A DNA stretch of 45,821 bases from a virus (lineage: Duplodnaviria > Heunggongvirae > Uroviricota > Caudoviricetes). The stretch's first letter is position 1; each line of letters starts with the position of its first letter. The stretch is taken from IMG/VR virus record IMGVR_UViG_2695420343_000003. The stretch is one strand, 5' to 3'. Below are positions 1 through 17,487 of the stretch, in pieces. The translations under genes and the position numbers were made by a program. The notes beneath the pieces are model-generated. The model was not told the origin of the DNA. It was given only the letters and a program-made list of their open reading frames with translations, and did no database searches.

Positions 1-342
1 ATGATGAGAAAAAGTATTCTGGCGTTTCTGTTACTCACCAGTTCTGCAGCTGCGCTGGCGGCACCGCAGGTGATTACCGTCAGCCGTTTTGAAGTGGGTA
101 AAGACAAATGGGCGTTTAATCGCGAAGAGGTGATGCTGACTTGCCGACCGGGTAATGCTTTGTATGTCATTAACCCAAGTACCCTCGTGCAGTATCCTTT
201 AAACGATATCGCACAAAAGGAAGTTGCCAGTGGGAAGACTAAAGCCCAACCCATTTCGGTGATTCAGATTGATGATCCTAACAATCCCGGCGAAAAAATG
301 AGTCTGGCACCGTTTATAGAGCGAGCTGAAAAACTCTGTTAA
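1..342 (+). CDS. yebY: YebY-like periplasmic protein (DUF2511), host gene
   Basis: 113-aa ORF with N-terminal signal peptide ([20 protein letters not shown]); matches my recollection of E. coli YebY; followed by a hairpin terminator. Confidence 0.75.
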
Positions 343-370
343 TTACCTAAAATAGCCTTTTGATTTCCAA

Positions 371-409
371 TAAAAAACCGCCTCAGTTCTTTCACCAGAA
401 CGGGCGGTT
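371..409 (+). terminator. Rho-independent terminator downstream of yebY
   Basis: A-run, GC stem (ccgcc...ggcgg), T-run: aaaaaccgcctcagttctttcaccagaacgggcggttttt. Confidence 0.55.
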
Positions 410-499
410 TTTAACATTTAAGCTGATGACCACCACGCTTTTTATTGACCATTTTGCACGCAAACTGGAAAACCTGGCGTCGTCATCTATTCTTAAAGA

Positions 500-602
500 G
501 CAAGGCAACTAAGCCTGCATTAATGCCAACTTTTAGCGCACGGCTCTCTCCCAAGAGCCATTTCCCTGGACCGAATACAGGAATCGTATTCGGTCTTTTT
601 TT
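500..602 (+). ncRNA. sdsR: SdsR (RyeB) small RNA, sigma-S dependent; 3' end overlaps prophage attL
   Basis: Sequence gcaaggcaactaagcctgcattaatgcc...ccgaatacaggaatcgtattcggtcttttttt matches my recollection of E. coli SdsR/RyeB, ending in a terminator hairpin and T-run; lies between yebY and pphA homologs as in K-12. Confidence 0.7.
577..596 (+). repeat. attL core (direct repeat with attR), inside sdsR terminator
   Basis: acaggaatcgtAttcggtct here vs acaggaatcgtGttcggtct at 44729..44748 (19/20 identical); integrase gene lies 140 bp away. Confidence 0.6.
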
Positions 603-733
603 AATTGTATTTAAAATCAATCGGTTGCAAACGTCTTCCCGAAATTCCCCGAAATTTACTCGAATTTCTGTATTCCGGTCTTTTTTGGTTATATCACAAC
701 CAAAACGCATTTAACAATCCATTTACGTTAAAA

Positions 734-1810
734 TCAGAGCAGTAAGTACGTTTTTTCTCTCTCATCAAGATACATTTTTGTTGTCTTCTCCGATGTGTGG
801 CCAAGTAGACGCTGAGCAAATTCTTCTCCACATGTTTCTTTGTACAATCGTCCAGCCAGACTTCTGATCTCGTGAAAAGTTGGTGGGTTTTCACTGAACT
901 GGATACCTGTTAATTTTCTGGCTGCGACAAATTTTTTTGTCAGGCCATCCGGGTGAATGCTGCCGTCAGGGCTGTTTTTTCTAATCCCGGCACTGATTAG
1001 ATAATCTCCCCGGCTTACCAGGCGGCAGCGTTCAACTACTGTACCAAGCCGTAGACCAGCGACAGGAAGTCTGAGTGACAGGGGGATAGCAATCATCATT
1101 CCTGTCTTAATTTGCCTGATGTGGAGACGATCATCATAAATCTCACTGAACCGCATATTTGTTATGTCTTCGCGACGTTGTCCTGTTACAAGGGCTAAGT
1201 CCATAGCTAATGGGAACCATGTCGGAAGTTGATCTGCTGCCTCCCTGATGCAGTTGTATGTCTTTAGTTTCAGCCGTTCTCTTGTAACTACTATTTTCGG
1301 TGCTCTTGTTGGCGTTACTGGATTTTGAGATATACGTCCTTCAACAATGGCCTCGCGGAACATATCAGATAACACAGAACGCATTGATCCTGCCATCGTG
1401 TTTTTCCCTCCTTCAATCCACAAATCAAGAAACTCGGCAATATGGCGAGTGGTTATTTCTGTCAGTAAAACCCCTCCTAATTTTTCTTTTATTGTCTCCA
1501 GTTGATTTACCCGAATTTTATAAGTATTTCTGGACACTTTTCTCCTTATAAGAATCGTTTTGTAACGTTCAATCCAGTCTGCCATAGTAAATGAGTCGAA
1601 CCCTTTTAGTTTTTCAATTAAGGCAGCAGGAGAGTAGTTTTTGTATATATAATGATTTGCTTCAATTGCCTGCGCTACTGCATCTCTTCTTGAAATTTTA
1701 CCTAGTGTAAATTCTTCTTTCGTCAGAGGGTTGCGCCAGTAATATGCTTTGTCCCTCCTTCGATATGTTAAGTTTTTAGGCAAATTGGGATCGTATTTTT
1801 TCCGCTGCAT
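734..1810 (-). CDS. Phage integrase (tyrosine recombinase, lambda Int family)
   Basis: 358-aa ORF; C-terminal catalytic-domain residues consistent with tyrosine recombinases (…[11 protein letters not shown]…[13 protein letters not shown]); adjacent to att site and overlapped by the xis ORF. Confidence 0.9.
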
Positions 1811-7635: not shown

Positions 7636-8059
7636 AATTATCTCCATTTTTACAAATGAATTTTGTCGATGCGGTGCCTGGTGCCTCCAGGTGACGTTAA
7701 CCAGTTAACAATTAACGCCGGATAATCCACCCATAACACTGATGCTTTTAACTGTTCCGCGTGCGCTTAGCCGCATTCACCGCATCACAAAATTCACTTT
7801 AAAAAGGGGCGGCAGGGCAGCCACGGAGTAGAACTGATGCCGCCAAAGACTACACAAAGCAATGTCGTTATTTACAACCGGAGGCGCACTCCCACCATTT
7901 AAATTTAACAGACAAGACCGACTCTTTATGGATACCGGAAATGCGCCTTCGTGTTGTGCCCGGTTTTATTTCACCACCTCCGGGCTTTGGTGGTATCTTT
8001 ACTGGAGTTCTCACACAACCAGTAAGGAAATGAATATGCCAACGTATCTCGCCAGAGTA

Positions 8060-8067
8060 GAACTATA
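8060..8067. repeat. IS1 target-site duplication, left copy (gaactata); right copy at 8836..8843
   Basis: Identical 8-bp direct repeat immediately flanking both IS1 ends. Confidence 0.75.
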
Positions 8068-8082
8068 GGTAATGACTCCAAC

Positions 8083-8586
8083 TTATTGATAGTGTTTTAT
8101 GTTCAGATAATGCCCGATGACTTTGTCATGCAGCTCCACCGATTTTGAGAACGACAGCGACTTCCGTCCCAGCCGTGCCAGGTGCTGCCTCAGATTCAGG
8201 TTATGCCGCTCAATTCGCTGCGTATATCGCTTGCTGATTACGTGCAGCTTTCCCTTCAGGCGGGATTCATACAGCGGCCAGCCATCCGTCATCCATATCA
8301 CCACGTCAAAGGGTGACAGCAGGCTCATAAGACGCCCCAGCGTCGCCATAGTGCGTTCACCGAATACGTGCGCAACAACCGTCTTCCGGAGCCTGTCATA
8401 CGCGTAAAACAGCCAGCGCTGGCGCGATTTAGCCCCGACGTATCCCCACTGTTCGTCCATTTCCGCGCAGACGATGACGTCACTGCCCGGCTGTATGCGC
8501 GAGGTTACCGACTGCGGCCTGAGTTTTTTAAATGGCGGAAAATCGTGTTGAGGCCAACGCCCATAATGCGGGCGGTTGCCCGGCAT
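8083..8586 (-). CDS. insB: IS1 transposase InsB
   Basis: 167-aa ORF matching recalled InsB ([30 protein letters not shown]…). Confidence 0.9.
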
Positions 8587-8780
8587 CCAACGCCATTCAT
8601 GGCCATATCAATGATTTTCTGGTGCGTACCGGGTTGAGAAGCGGTGTAAGTGAACTGCAGTTGCCATGTTTTACGGCAGTGAGAGCAGAGATAGCGCTGA
8701 TGTCCGGCGGTGCTTTTGCCGTTACGCACCACCCCGTCAGTAGCTGAACAGGAGGGACAGCTGATAGAAACAGAAGCCAC
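8505..8780 (-). CDS. insA: IS1 InsA
   Basis: 91-aa ORF matching recalled InsA ([43 protein letters not shown]…). Confidence 0.9.
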
Positions 8781-9078
8781 TGGAGCACCTCAAAAACACC
8801 ATCATACACTAAATCAGTAAGTTGGCAGCATCACCGAACTATATAATGCTGAGCCAGAGGATTACGAAGGGCTTCATAAATATATGCTCTCACTAGGATT
8901 CAGGAGAACGATCCCCCATGGAGATGGTTCGTATAATCAACTCCCGGACGGAACTTATGTTTCCGAAAAGGGCGGTGATATTTATCAAATTCGCAGCCAG
9001 ATATCTGACTATGCAGACCGACTATCCAGATATCGCGCGTCTGTTTTTGTTTGCGAATTCAGTCAATGCGCATGGTAT

Positions 9079-13772: not shown

Positions 13773-13805
13773 CTACTAGGGGGGATAACAATAAAATAAA
13801 GCCTC

Positions 13806-14846
13806 CTAGGAGGCTTTGATTATATTAAGCAAATGTTTTCCAATCGTTTCAGACATCTTCGGAGGGACCGCATTTCCTATTTGACGAGCCCGAGATTGCA
13901 AAGAACCAATAAATTTATAATCCAAAGGAAATGTTTGTAGACACGCTGCTTCACGAACCGATATTGCTCGATTTTGTGTTGGATGTCCAAAACGTCCATT
14001 TGAATAGCTAATACAACGAGTTGTTAGTCCGCTGGCTGGTTTGTCCCAACTCAAACGTCCATATACGTCTGTATGCCCTTTATGGTTACGATGGCATTCT
14101 AAAATCAATTCATCTGGCCAAAATTCTCGACTTCCACCTTCAGGAGTGCATTTTATTCTACGTAAATTAAGCTCTGATAAGCGTGCAGCTTCATGATCAG
14201 GAATACTATTATGCTTTTCTCCTGCTTCTATCTTCGGTAAATTAGCGATCCAGTCCTTTACTGTTGAATAGGGAGTATTTCCAACCCCATGTGTAGGAGA
14301 AGGCAATGCGACATAAAAATCCTTGGATGCAATGAGCACTAATCTTTCTCGCGTCTGTGGTACACCGTACCACGCAGCTGGCATTACTTTATAATCTACA
14401 CTATATCCCTTTGATGAAAGCATTTCTAAAAACATCATGAATGTTCCTTCATTTTTGTTAAACTTTTGCATTCCTGGCACGTTTTCAACAAAAATAAAAT
14501 CAGGCATATAATGCTCTACAAAACGACTGAATTCCTTTAATAGATCTAATCGTGGATCATCATTTTTTTTATTTGAGTTTTGCTTAGAGTACGGTTGACA
14601 AGGCGCACATCCTGAAAAAAGAATGTAATCATTACGATGTTTTTTTACTAACTTGTTTATGGCATTGTTGTCGATTAACCTAATGTCCGAGTTAATAAAA
14701 GCAGCTTGCGGGAAATTTGCACGAAATGAACTGGCTGCATCAACGTCGAAATCGAGGCCAAAAACAATATCCATTCCAGCTTGATGGAAACCTTGGCTGG
14801 TTCCACCACAACCGGAAAAGAAGTCAAACACTTTGATTTTTTTCAT
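13806..14846 (-). CDS. DNA (cytosine-5)-methyltransferase (Dcm-like)
   Basis: C5-MTase motifs: I FDFFSGCGG, IV GCAPCQPYS (catalytic Cys), VI FVENVPGM, VIII QTRERLVLIA, X GNAVPP; AT-rich; 23 bp downstream of the ATPase gene on the same strand. Confidence 0.9.
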   Translation of the reverse strand: MKKIKVFDFFSGCGGTSQGFHQAGMDIVFGLDFDVDAASSFRANFPQAAFINSDIRLIDNNAINKLVKKHRNDYILFSGCAPCQPYSKQNSNKKNDDPRLDLLKEFSRFVEHYMPDFIFVENVPGMQKFNKNEGTFMMFLEMLSSKGYSVDYKVMPAAWYGVPQTRERLVLIASKDFYVALPSPTHGVGNTPYSTVKDWIANLPKIEAGEKHNSIPDHEAARLSELNLRRIKCTPEGGSREFWPDELILECHRNHKGHTDVYGRLSWDKPASGLTTRCISYSNGRFGHPTQNRAISVREAACLQTFPLDYKFIGSLQSRARQIGNAVPPKMSETIGKHLLNIIKAS

Positions 14847-14869
14847 TTTTCCCTCTGCATCCAGAATCA

Positions 14870-16699
14870 CTATCTAATGATACCACGGTCAAGAGCCTGA
14901 GTAATTATTTTTCTTATTTTTATAAATTCAGGCAATTCATTTTTAAGTCTTGCGGTCATCATTTGTTGGAGGCAAAAAATTTCCTCTGCATTTACTTCTT
15001 CTTTATCATACAGGTGTTGCGCTAATAATCTTATTTGATTCTTATACAGCTCTGGATCATTAGAACTCCAGGTCTGTGAATCAATTATTTCTTTTTCACT
15101 TGGCGTAATTGCCTTTTCAATGAGTAATTGTTCGGGAGTATCAAATGGTAAATACTGCACTTTATTGAATGCATACTCAAGCACTTGCCTTTTGAGTCTA
15201 TTAGATTCTTGTTCATTTTTTTTGCCATTACTACCACTGGCATTGATAATTAACTCGCAACCATAATATTTGCACATTGTATTAACTAAATCAGCATCAG
15301 CAATTTCACTAATTCTTACTGGTTTTATTTTTTTGTTTTTATCACCATCAAGTAAAAACAAAATATCATTGCGTTCTACCACAGCGTAACTGGGAAGATG
15401 CTTGCTTAAAATTGTCTCCGAACCACCTGGTATATAACTTACACTAAATGATAAACTTAATCTTTCATAATTTTTAATCGCTTTATCTATAATTGCTTTA
15501 GCTAATTTATCTTCTACAATTATTGTTTTCTTGTTAATATCATGCCCTAGCTCTATAAAAGCTTCATCCGGTGCTATATTTTGAACTATTTTAGCTGTTT
15601 CACTCTCTTCATCAAAAACAAATAATTTAATAGCATCTTTGGGAAGAGTGTTCACAATAACAGGAGAATGGGTTGATATTACCACTTGATGTTTTTTCTG
15701 CTCAACAATAGAGTACAGAACATCCATCATCCTTTTCTGTGCACCAGGGTGAAGTGAAACTTCTGGTTCGTCAAGAAGAATTAATGAATTAGGTTTGGCC
15801 GAATAAATATTGAGTATTAGTGAAACTATTGCAAATTCACCACTTCCAGCAAAAGCTTCTGTATAGTTCAACTTATCAGTTGAAAGTAAAGCGGTTCCTC
15901 CTCTGGTTCCAAATAACCGATGCTCAAGAAATTTAATGACTTTATATTTTTTTCCTAATATAAATGAGACGTGCTCAACTAGTTCTGGCGCCAAGGTTAT
16001 ATTTTTAACAATGGTTTCCGTCCCCCAAAGTCTTAAATTATTTAGCTTTTCATCAAAAGCTTTCTTTATATATTTAGATTTGCTTCTGATATAGTCTTGC
16101 TTTGTAATTAATACACCACTCTTCTTCTTTCTTAATTTAAAATCAGAGTGATACATACATCTATCAAATGCACTTATTTCCGATCTGAAATCTAGGAAAA
16201 CCAATCCCTTCTTGATTTTTTTCCATCTGGTTGCATTACTATTAGCACCCAGATCATCCGAAATACTCTCCATGTTATCACCAACAGATGGTCGACTTGT
16301 TTCCCAATAATCGATTGTTTTCTTGGTAGCATTGATACGCGCTTGGAGTATTTCAACTAAACGGCCATCAGCATTTTTATATCCATATATATATCTAGGC
16401 TTAAGAGAACTGCCATCAGCAAGTTTTAGGTCAGGAAACTCATCTGTTTCAGTTGTGAACCAATAACGAGTTATATTTTTACCATGTGGGCAACCAAATA
16501 GCGCTTTGATAACAGAACTTTTATTAGTTCCATTTTTTCCTACTAAAGCCGTTATAGGGAACTGAAAATCGATCCTTGCATTCTGCTCTATATTTTTAAA
16601 GTATGGAAAACGGATATGTTGTATGAATGGTTCAAATTCACCGTTTTTTAACGCGCACTGGAGTGTTCGAATTTTGCTCTTGTATGCGGAAGTGCTCAT
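14870..16699 (-). CDS. OLD-family ATP-dependent nuclease (ABC-type ATPase + Toprim-like domain)
   Basis: Walker A LVGKNGTNKSS, signature-like AGSGEF, Walker B LILLDEPEVSLHP, H-loop ISTHSP; C-terminal Toprim-like motifs TIIVEDK and FLLDGDKN; very AT-rich. Confidence 0.8.
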   Translation of the reverse strand: MSTSAYKSKIRTLQCALKNGEFEPFIQHIRFPYFKNIEQNARIDFQFPITALVGKNGTNKSSVIKALFGCPHGKNITRYWFTTETDEFPDLKLADGSSLKPRYIYGYKNADGRLVEILQARINATKKTIDYWETSRPSVGDNMESISDDLGANSNATRWKKIKKGLVFLDFRSEISAFDRCMYHSDFKLRKKKSGVLITKQDYIRSKSKYIKKAFDEKLNNLRLWGTETIVKNITLAPELVEHVSFILGKKYKVIKFLEHRLFGTRGGTALLSTDKLNYTEAFAGSGEFAIVSLILNIYSAKPNSLILLDEPEVSLHPGAQKRMMDVLYSIVEQKKHQVVISTHSPVIVNTLPKDAIKLFVFDEESETAKIVQNIAPDEAFIELGHDINKKTIIVEDKLAKAIIDKAIKNYERLSLSFSVSYIPGGSETILSKHLPSYAVVERNDILFLLDGDKNKKIKPVRISEIADADLVNTMCKYYGCELIINASGSNGKKNEQESNRLKRQVLEYAFNKVQYLPFDTPEQLLIEKAITPSEKEIIDSQTWSSNDPELYKNQIRLLAQHLYDKEEVNAEEIFCLQQMMTARLKNELPEFIKIRKIITQALDRGIIR

Positions 16700-16847
16700 T
16701 GTTTACTAAAGTCCATAATAGGCTATTAACAGGTTGAGGATGACATGATAGCGATTTTTAATGCAGATAAAAGAGGTTTGTTGGTTAGCACACAACAGAA
16801 AAAGTGACCTTACCGCTTGAACGAAAGGTAAGGGTAAGTAGGCTGTG

Positions 16848-17000
16848 ATGCAGCAAAAGGCGATGTTAATCGCCCTGATCGTCATCTGTTTAACCGTCGT
16901 TGTGACGGCACTGGTAACGAGGAAAGACATCTGCGAGGTACGAATCCGAACCGGCCAGACGGAGGTCGCTGTCTTCACAGCTTACGAACCTGAGGAGTAA
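16848..17000 (+). CDS. hok: Hok/Gef-family type I toxin (50 aa)
   Basis: Hand-translated: MQQKAMLIALIVICLTVVVTALVTRKDICEVRIRTGQTEVAVFTAYEPEE, near-identical to recalled HokD/RelF; short upstream ORF ends TGATG-coupled to the start (mok-like). Confidence 0.8.
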   Translation: MQQKAMLIALIVICLTVVVTALVTRKDICEVRIRTGQTEVAVFTAYEPEE

Positions 17001-17067
17001 GAGACCCGGCGGAGGAGAAATCCCCCGCCACCTCTGATGTGTCAGGCATCCTCAACGCACCCGTACT

Positions 17068-17089
17068 TAGCCGCTTCGGCGGGTTTTTT
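17068..17089 (+). terminator. Terminator at 3' end of hok mRNA
   Basis: gccgcttcggcggg hairpin + TTTTTT. Confidence 0.65.
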
Positions 17090-17274
17090 GTTGCGCGCTG
17101 AATACGCAGGGTGAAAAATAACCATATATTTGATTATATACACAACAAAAAATAAAAGTCATTGTACCTGCACATTAAATAATCAAATATACGGCGTGAA
17201 ATAAATATTTTTCAGATTAATATTTTTGTCTCTATGTGGATATAACCGTTTGTACTTATAAACTCGGAGGCATC

Positions 17275-17487
17275 GTGGAAAAAATAAAGAAACTATTTAG
17301 TTGTAAATACGCAGTCATACGTCGTGATGACCTGTCAGTTATAGTCGAAATGGATTACTTCCCTGAAACCCCAAAATCAATGATGTATCGTAATGGTCGA
17401 AAGGCAATTTTTTTACCGATGAGGGTAAGTGACATTATGGGAAATGATAAACTGCTGGATGAATTGCGAGTCAGAGCATCCTGTTAG
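17275..17487 (+). CDS. Hypothetical small phage protein
   Basis: GTG start preceded by GGAGG (alternative ATG at 17236 lacks an RBS); 70 aa. Confidence 0.4.
   Translation: MEKIKKLFSCKYAVIRRDDLSVIVEMDYFPETPKSMMYRNGRKAIFLPMRVSDIMGNDKLLDELRVRASC

Follow-up and report, generated by a model that had tools for sequence, protein, structure and literature searches.

We report that a small toxin gene in a 45,821-nt virus sequence (IMG/VR record IMGVR_UViG_2695420343_000003, class Caudoviricetes; the whole stretch is called the window below) is, judged from its sequence, an orphan toxin gene like hokD of E. coli K-12 and not a complete hok/sok system. In our view, this hok is probably a 5'-truncated hokD orphan that lacks both Sok and mok, a silent and tolerated relic that constitutes no addiction module. 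As such, the window provides an independent truncation of the hokD leader, of a kind that is already known. The evidence comes from four parts of the locus: the toxin ORF and its 3' UTR, the missing regulatory half of the leader, the sequence that took its place, and the short retained region around the toxin start.

The toxin CDS (16845..17000, plus strand) is a single frame that contains two potential starts, GTG 16845 and ATG 16848, and ends with TAA at 16998-17000. According to the alignment with related genes the ancestral start corresponds to GTG 16845, giving a product of 51 aa, while the alternative ATG 16848 gives 50 aa. An earlier note on this DNA described a Hok/Gef-like 50-aa ORF at 16848..17000 that falls under the 60-aa cutoff of the ORF track. 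Both observations are borne out: the ATG does open 50 codons, and the cutoff is the whole reason why the ORF is absent from the track. The peptide matches the Pfam family Hok/Gef (PF01848) with an E-value of 1.5e-22 and 79.3 bits (cutoff 22), and its translated sequence, MMQQKAMLIALIVICLTVVVTALVTRKDICEVRIRTGQTEVAVFTAYEPEE, is the same as that of K-12 HokD at 48 of 51 residues, the differences being K2M, I19V and L29I. Residues matching C31, E32, E41 and E49 of the R1 toxin can be read from the window peptide as well. K-12 HokD, 94% identical to the window peptide, has been reported to be toxic when overexpressed (bioRxiv 10.1101/2025.08.07.668861). Four complete E. coli genomes contain the 651-nt stretch 16600-17250 at 99.8% identity, and in all four PGAP labels the 51-codon GTG ORF as 'type I toxin-antitoxin system toxin HokD'. 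By these similarities the small ORF is a genuine Hok-family membrane toxin gene of the hokD type, and one that has already been annotated. It is also the sole hok in the window, as tblastn found no second one. The ORF is uninterrupted in every carrier inspected (12 IMG/VR contigs and 3 of the 32 complete genomes described below). Together with the conservative nature of the three changes relative to HokD, this argues that the gene is not decaying as a pseudogene, a point that counts against the relic reading.

The 3' UTR retains the elements expected of a hok transcript. A stem-loop at 17008..17029 (-14.9 kcal/mol, z -3.6), with one A.C mismatch, corresponds to the stem that ends processed hok mRNA. 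Next comes the fbi region (17047..17062), in which the canonical fbi sequence CCTCAACGCACCC occupies 17050-62 and is invariant in the alignment. The last element, a GCCGC-TTCG-GCGGG hairpin with a T6 run at 17070..17089, is a weaker version of the terminal hairpin at the 3' end of canonical hok loci. The earlier note had called it a strong terminator. The GC stem (4 bp) and the T6 run are indeed present; the strength is not, as the hairpin folds at -8.0 kcal/mol with a z of -0.5 (-12.6 kcal/mol for the K-12 counterpart) and the terminator scan made no call at 17070-17089. In the commonest variant of the locus (ATCC 8739 type) the T-run is gone too.

Two minor observations concern the same region. 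The interval 17009-17089 (plus strand) gives a sub-threshold match to the Rfam family isrK, a prophage sRNA of Salmonella (23 bits where the cutoff is 50; E 0.012 for the 801 nt searched). The match may reflect just the common shape of two hairpins plus a terminator. A promoter-like ATGACT-18-TATAAT (10/12) lies at 17133-17162 on the minus strand, 45 nt past the hok terminator and facing hok. We rejected it as a candidate, as it is located in a backbone segment common to canonical loci and the number of promoter-like sites equals the shuffle expectation.

To see what a complete leader looks like, we used related hok loci, 25 of which were collected by a genome-contig scan. The full-length hokD-type loci (L004, L005 and L008-L011) have a leader of ~170 nt that starts with the tac element GGGTGCTTGAGG. 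In canonical relatives, the mok-equivalent ATG is found 57 nt upstream of hok (opening a 70-aa ORF in L004), and the Sok promoter, TTGCCT-17-TAACCT on the minus strand, is at -14/-37. From the promoter positions we estimate that the canonical Sok RNA spans roughly -49 to -115. The published primers for hokW-sokW of prophage Sp5 fit this full-length hokD-type architecture (PMC8621323). The mok reading frame itself varies within the hok family: the mok-equivalent ATG is in the hok frame and yields a 70-aa ORF in L003 (an IncFII plasmid hok/sok), L004, L005 and L013, whereas the R1 codon numbering implies that mok is in a different frame (PMC9841398).

Most of this leader has no counterpart in the window. 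The Rfam model of the hok leader/sok region (RF01794) reaches 117-120 bits with L004, L005 and L010, and 87 bits with an R1-type plasmid locus. In the window interval 16500-17300 it finds no match even at E<=10, and on K-12 hokD it finds nothing at the gathering threshold. The permissive Rfam search of 16500-17300 returned only the isrK-like sub-threshold match and noise, with no sok. A profile HMM built from 66 distinct canonical leaders and run with nhmmer aligns only 16809-16846, to the last 34 positions of the profile; BLAST similarity to canonical hok loci begins at 16822. Canonical hokD-type similarity can thus be followed to ~16809, or 36 nt 5' of the start codon, leaving 16809..16844 (plus strand) as the sole retained part of the canonical leader. 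No counterpart of the hok promoter, tac, ucb, the mok start, the Sok target or the Sok gene was detectable in the window leader. The leader profile found no leftover 5' half beyond the neighbouring cassette or elsewhere in the window, and the canonical tac GGGTGCTTGAGG is absent from the window. A hexamer TTACCT, resembling the Sok promoter -35 (TTGCCT), does occupy the canonical position, with unrelated sequence where the -10 would be and nothing detectably similar to the Sok-transcribed region in the window leader. In a promoter matrix the canonical Sok promoter scores 9.4 and the best minus-strand candidate of the window 6.4, and a consensus promoter and terminator scan found nothing on either strand of the window leader. 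We also discarded the idea that CATAATAGG...GGTTGAGG and GGTTAGC in the window leader go back to the hok promoter/tac and the Sok -10, since the 66-leader profile does not support it.

These results bear directly on the proposal, made in the earlier note, that a sok-like antisense gene lies on the minus strand at 16740-16840. We found no support for it: RF01794 does not match, the leader profile starts only at 16809 and the promoter candidates are weak. If the genome has further hok/sok copies, their Sok RNA would, given its estimated span, have no target here. On homology and consensus promoter scoring only, which could miss an unconventional promoter, we infer that no antisense RNA is involved at the window hok. 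The description of the locus as hok/sok-type therefore holds in part. The toxin, the 3' UTR elements and a helix closing the start (see below) belong to such a locus; sok, mok and the leader do not follow.

The same holds for the short ORF that overlaps the toxin ATG and had been seen as part of the system. The overlap is real: the TGA at 16846-48 and the ATG at 16848-50 form TGATG. The frame ending at this TGA is open only from 16789 and contains a single start, GTG 16804, with no SD (duplex energy +0.2 kcal/mol). The ORF (16804..16848, plus strand) has 14 codons, and it is the sole one to reach the hok start. Each of the three frames is interrupted by a stop in the 13 nt 5' of that start. 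The mok-equivalent frame is shut in the window by TAG 16839-41 and TGA 16818-20. The 14-codon upstream ORF is not homologous to mok.

In place of the regulatory half the window has an AT-rich sequence (16700..16808) that extends between the start of an ATPase gene and the retained hok leader, and presumably holds the divergent promoter region. Its GC content (0.34, taken over 16700-16805) agrees with that of the ATPase gene (0.338) and differs from the value of 0.547 for 16806-17090. Of 5426 complete E. coli genomes, 32 contain the sequence 16700..16808; there it is prophage-borne, at least 97% identical and always beside the same ATPase and methyltransferase pair. The ATPase (14870..16699, minus strand; 609 aa; Pfam AAA_15/AAA_21) is of the OLD type, annotated as 'ATP-dependent nuclease', with PADLOC matches to HEC-04 (6e-35) and ATPase-Toprim_I-B (7e-27) and also to AriA, PtuA and GajA. 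Adjacent to it is a C5 DNA cytosine methyltransferase (13806..14870, minus strand; PF00145, 5e-61) with PADLOC matches to MTase_II (1e-96) and also to DruM. The two genes make up an AT-rich cassette (13806-16699, minus strand; GC 0.34-0.39) that fills the cargo slot of the prophage from DUF977 to hok. We regard it as a candidate module for defence or a restriction-like function. Where the convergent DUF977 and methyltransferase genes meet, a perfect palindrome, AAAGCCTCCTAGGAGGCTTT (13798-13817), probably acts as a terminator in both directions and marks the left edge of the cassette.

The junction between the cassette and hok appears to be young and confined to a single lineage, because distant relatives of the ATPase (64-69% identity) have no hok adjoining. 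The leader together with the 5' end of the ATPase gene had no match in the phage collection. Among all carriers the leader differs at no more than three positions, as against a divergence of 5-10% in the hok CDS and 3' UTR, which points to recombination inside hok. An attempt to assign 16745-16808 to the ATPase's own upstream region by comparison with L039 and L040 was not significant (score 23; shuffle mean 18.2, maximum 30). It had been suggested that the hok locus might stabilise the adjacent AT-rich cargo. As the unstable antitoxin is absent, this idea loses its basis, and the cargo itself is what replaced the regulatory half. A published survey found hok genes to be enriched in prophages and not near defence systems (bioRxiv 10.1101/2025.08.07.668861).

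The retained start region differs from that of canonical loci in a distinctive way. Compared with the consensus of 74 canonical prophage hok loci, the window has six substitutions within 29 nt (-23 to +5) and three in the other 150 nt of the CDS (Fisher p 0.0007). Across the 74 loci, five of the six substituted positions are invariant and one is conserved in 73. The changes include SD AGGAG to AGGGT, CAG to TAG in the hok frame (16839-41), ATG to GTG at 16845, AAG to ATG at 16848 and C to T at -16. The SD is weakened as a result (AAGGG at 16830-34; ancestral AGGAG). The TGATG overlap arises because the ancestral ATG-AAG became GTG-ATG. The change at -16 completes a local hairpin over the SD, in which CCTTACC (16808-14) and GGTAAGG (16827-33) form 7 bp (-10.3 kcal/mol, z -2.8). 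The cluster reads as a silencing signature of presumed selective origin. Alternatively, given the recombination inside hok, the excess could mean that this segment has a different, older and more divergent ancestry, and when the more divergent ATCC 8739-type CDS is used for comparison, the excess is about nominally significant only (a hand estimate from the counts).

The start codon is predicted to be closed in a second way as well. In the MFE fold, 16838..16848 (plus strand) pairs with 16975..16985 in hok codons 44-47, forming 11 continuous bp. In all 19 hok loci compared, the start region forms a duplex with the part of the gene that encodes ...FTAYE, and the duplex sequence differs on both arms between subfamilies, as exemplified by GCCAUGAAA/UUUCAUGGC in R1. 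The window duplex, at -30.4 kcal/mol, lies outside the range of 98 other hok loci (-15.1 to -26.3, median -19.9), and four of the five substitutions within the modelled duplex segment stabilise it. As a side observation, low-level A-to-I editing of hokD mRNA has been published, and, by sequence position, the Tyr47 codon TACG at 16983-86, which is part of the 3' arm, appears to be the editing site (PMC12214031). Owing to the C to T change at 16839, A16984 faces a U, with which it makes a Watson-Crick pair, in place of a C, which is mismatched with A but would pair with inosine.

The comparison with other loci shows how this one arose. It began as a canonical hok/sok of a prophage, like hokW-sokW or full-length hokD, and lost its regulatory half: the AT-rich ATPase and methyltransferase cassette, on the opposite strand, replaced the hok promoter, tac, ucb, the mok start, and the Sok target and gene. 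Of the leader only the final ~36 nt are left, followed by the intact toxin ORF and by the 3' UTR with fbi and the stem-loops. In the remaining transcript the start region would be shut by the SD hairpin and by the long-range helix to codons 44-47, with no mok translation to open it. The weaker SD, the GTG, the in-frame TAG and the extra base pairs of the helix would have been gained as well. Since mok opening is lacking and the start region is both closed and weakened, the window hok is most likely kept from translation in cis, or else yields very little product.

The closest known parallel is hokD (relF) of the K-12 Qin prophage. The two loci share 48 of the 51 residues, the same 3' UTR and the same slot just upstream of a DUF1367 (ydfU-type) gene, the K-12 order at the equivalent place being relB-relE-hokD-rem-ydfU (DUF1367); a sok/mok leader is detectable in neither. 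They differ in what replaced the leader and where. In K-12 it was relBE, on the same strand, with a breakpoint at ~-17; in the window it is the opposite-strand cassette, with a breakpoint at ~-36. Co-transcription with upstream genes as in relBEF is accordingly a property of K-12 only, the neighbours in the window lying on the opposite strand. K-12 hokD also keeps the ancestral SD and ATG, whereas the window has AGGGT, GTG, the in-frame TAG and a stronger closing helix. In K-12, all hok loci except hokB have been described as inactivated by IS elements or rearrangement (PMC12214031). With complete loci of the same toxin subfamily (hokW-sokW of Sakai prophage 5, L004, L005 and L010) the window shares fbi, the 3' stem-loops and the prophage neighbourhood, and in the case of L005 also the downstream flank. 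The ~170-nt leader of these loci, with its tac, its mok-equivalent ORF and its promoter for Sok RNA, is missing from the window.

The resemblance to R1 hok/sok (parB) is more distant at the protein level (37% identity over 46 aa in tblastn) and extends to the pairing of the start region with the ...AYE-coding region and to the presence of the 3' fbi element that fold-back in R1 uses. Post-segregational killing by R1 needs mok translation and the Sok antisense RNA, and the window is without both. R1 is of interest for another reason. When the Sok promoter was inactivated in a FASTBAC-Seq experiment, every survivor carried a loss-of-function mutation in hok; among the classes recovered were stop codons in mok, altered start codons and substitutions by which a closed mRNA structure is stabilised (PMC9841398). 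The window combines changes similar to these suppressors: a stop upstream of the hok start, a changed start codon, changes next to the SD and a stabilised closed structure. The stem stabilised in the R1 suppressors is that of the mok SD and anti-SD (PMC9841398), whereas in the window it is the helix at the hok start. Moreover, the R1 suppressors are single mutations selected in the laboratory, whereas the window has several co-occurring natural substitutions, the selective origin of which is our interpretation.

A different role for the gene has to be weighed against its being a relic. We consider it possible, if unlikely, that hok serves as a Sok-independent toxin of the lytic cycle. By analogy with HokW of Sp5, antiterminated early-right transcription upon induction would cross the cassette and hok towards a Q-like gene and produce some Hok, helping to kill or lyse the host, while the closed mRNA and the weak start would keep the toxin off in the lysogen. 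The orientation of hok agrees with this suggestion. It is that of the early-right operon, so that the gene may be transcribed during induction, and it is shared with the replication genes upstream and with the DUF1367, YbcO and DUF1133 (Q-like) genes downstream. There is a precedent too, as hokW-sokW raises the release of Sp5 about twofold and HokW appears after mitomycin C (PMC8621323). Against this, the window has no mok-like ORF to open the start, its SD and start codon have been weakened and its closing helix strengthened, and in the commonest variant the terminator and 3' elements are degraded.

A further alternative, which we regard as improbable, is that hok has been rewired into a cis-regulated module without an antisense RNA. 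Its starting point is a 10-nt element unrelated to tac, GTTGAGGATG (16733..16742, plus strand), that could pair without a mismatch with CATCCTCAAC at 17047-56, a stretch overlapping fbi. A complement of at least 10 nt to the fbi region appeared in 0.5% of 5000 dinucleotide shuffles (0.26% when overlapping fbi), and the predicted pairing probability of 16733-42 with 17047-56 is ~1.0, provided that both ends are in one transcript. The element could be a substitute for the fold-back element or a chance match. It overlaps the SD (GAGGA) of a 20-codon upstream ORF (16745..16807, plus strand; ATG 16745), the stop of which, TGA 16805-07, overlaps GTG 16804 of the 14-codon ORF. Under this alternative, pairing of the element with fbi would lock the full-length mRNA, 3' processing would then free the SD of the 20-codon ORF, and a translational relay through GTGA (16804-07) and TGATG (16846-50) would replace mok. 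The divergent ATPase transcript might serve as the antisense. The substitutions would first have silenced hok after the loss of Sok and mok, and the fold-back and relay would now gate rare translation of the toxin, for example following 3' processing or in prophage induction. The rarity of the complement among shuffles, its predicted pairing and the chain of ORFs beginning with an SD speak for such an arrangement. The best plus-strand promoter candidate is TTGAGG-17-TTTAAT, in which the conserved A at position 2 of the -10 is lacking. What weakens the alternative is that this candidate, with a TSS at ~16769, would exclude both the 10-mer and the first ORF from the transcript, and that GTG 16804 has no SD. 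The leader is essentially invariant among carriers and provides no covariation to read, the junction is young, with deeper relatives of the cassette having no hok, and the pattern was found post hoc. Finally, there is the canonical hok/mok/sok locus of the earlier note, in which the minus strand would encode a Sok-like antisense RNA around 16740-16840. The toxin, fbi and terminal hairpins of the hok family and TTACCT at the Sok -35 position speak for it. We deem it extremely improbable: RF01794, which gives true loci 87-120 bits, finds no match at E<=10, the leader profile starts only at 16809, the Sok -10, the transcribed region and the mok start are undetected, and 16700-16808 has the composition and linkage of the cassette.

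The truncated hokD orphan, which is the reading we prefer, leaves the current understanding of type I toxin-antitoxin systems unchanged. It does illustrate that a Hok ORF alone does not imply a hok/sok system, and that annotation pipelines and readers should check the leader. Leader loss at this place is found repeatedly. Out of 80 sampled prophage loci encoding an identical HokD protein, 77 have the canonical leader and three a truncated one; in one locus (L122), an IS transposase at 41-1129 (minus strand) truncates the hokD leader at about -17. The site just upstream of prophage hokD has thus been overwritten by relBE in K-12, by an IS in L122 and by a candidate defence module in the window. 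If the cluster of changes in the start region does reflect selection, the window locus would be a natural counterpart of the laboratory suppressor screens and an example of a genome tolerating a toxin gene after the loss of its antitoxin.

As for the wider setting, the genes around hok are arranged in the order of replication-type genes, DUF1627 and DUF977 (plus strand), methyltransferase and ATPase (minus strand), and hok, DUF1367, YbcO and DUF1133/Q-like (plus strand). Full-length Rfam matches were obtained for SraC/RyeA and SdsR/RyeB (462-606), for RalA, the antitoxin of RalR (2168-2346), and for DicF (7807-7858). They assign the window to a lambdoid prophage of the Rac/Qin type that adjoins ryeA/ryeB. 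Related loci contain additional genes on either side of hok. In L004, a 228-aa protein is encoded at 577-1263 (plus strand) directly upstream of an intact hok/sok. In L005, which is the nearest of the canonical relatives, a segment at 2145-2914, inserted downstream of hok, is 90% identical over 770 nt to window positions 8066-8835, which would be a further sign of module shuffling among these prophages.
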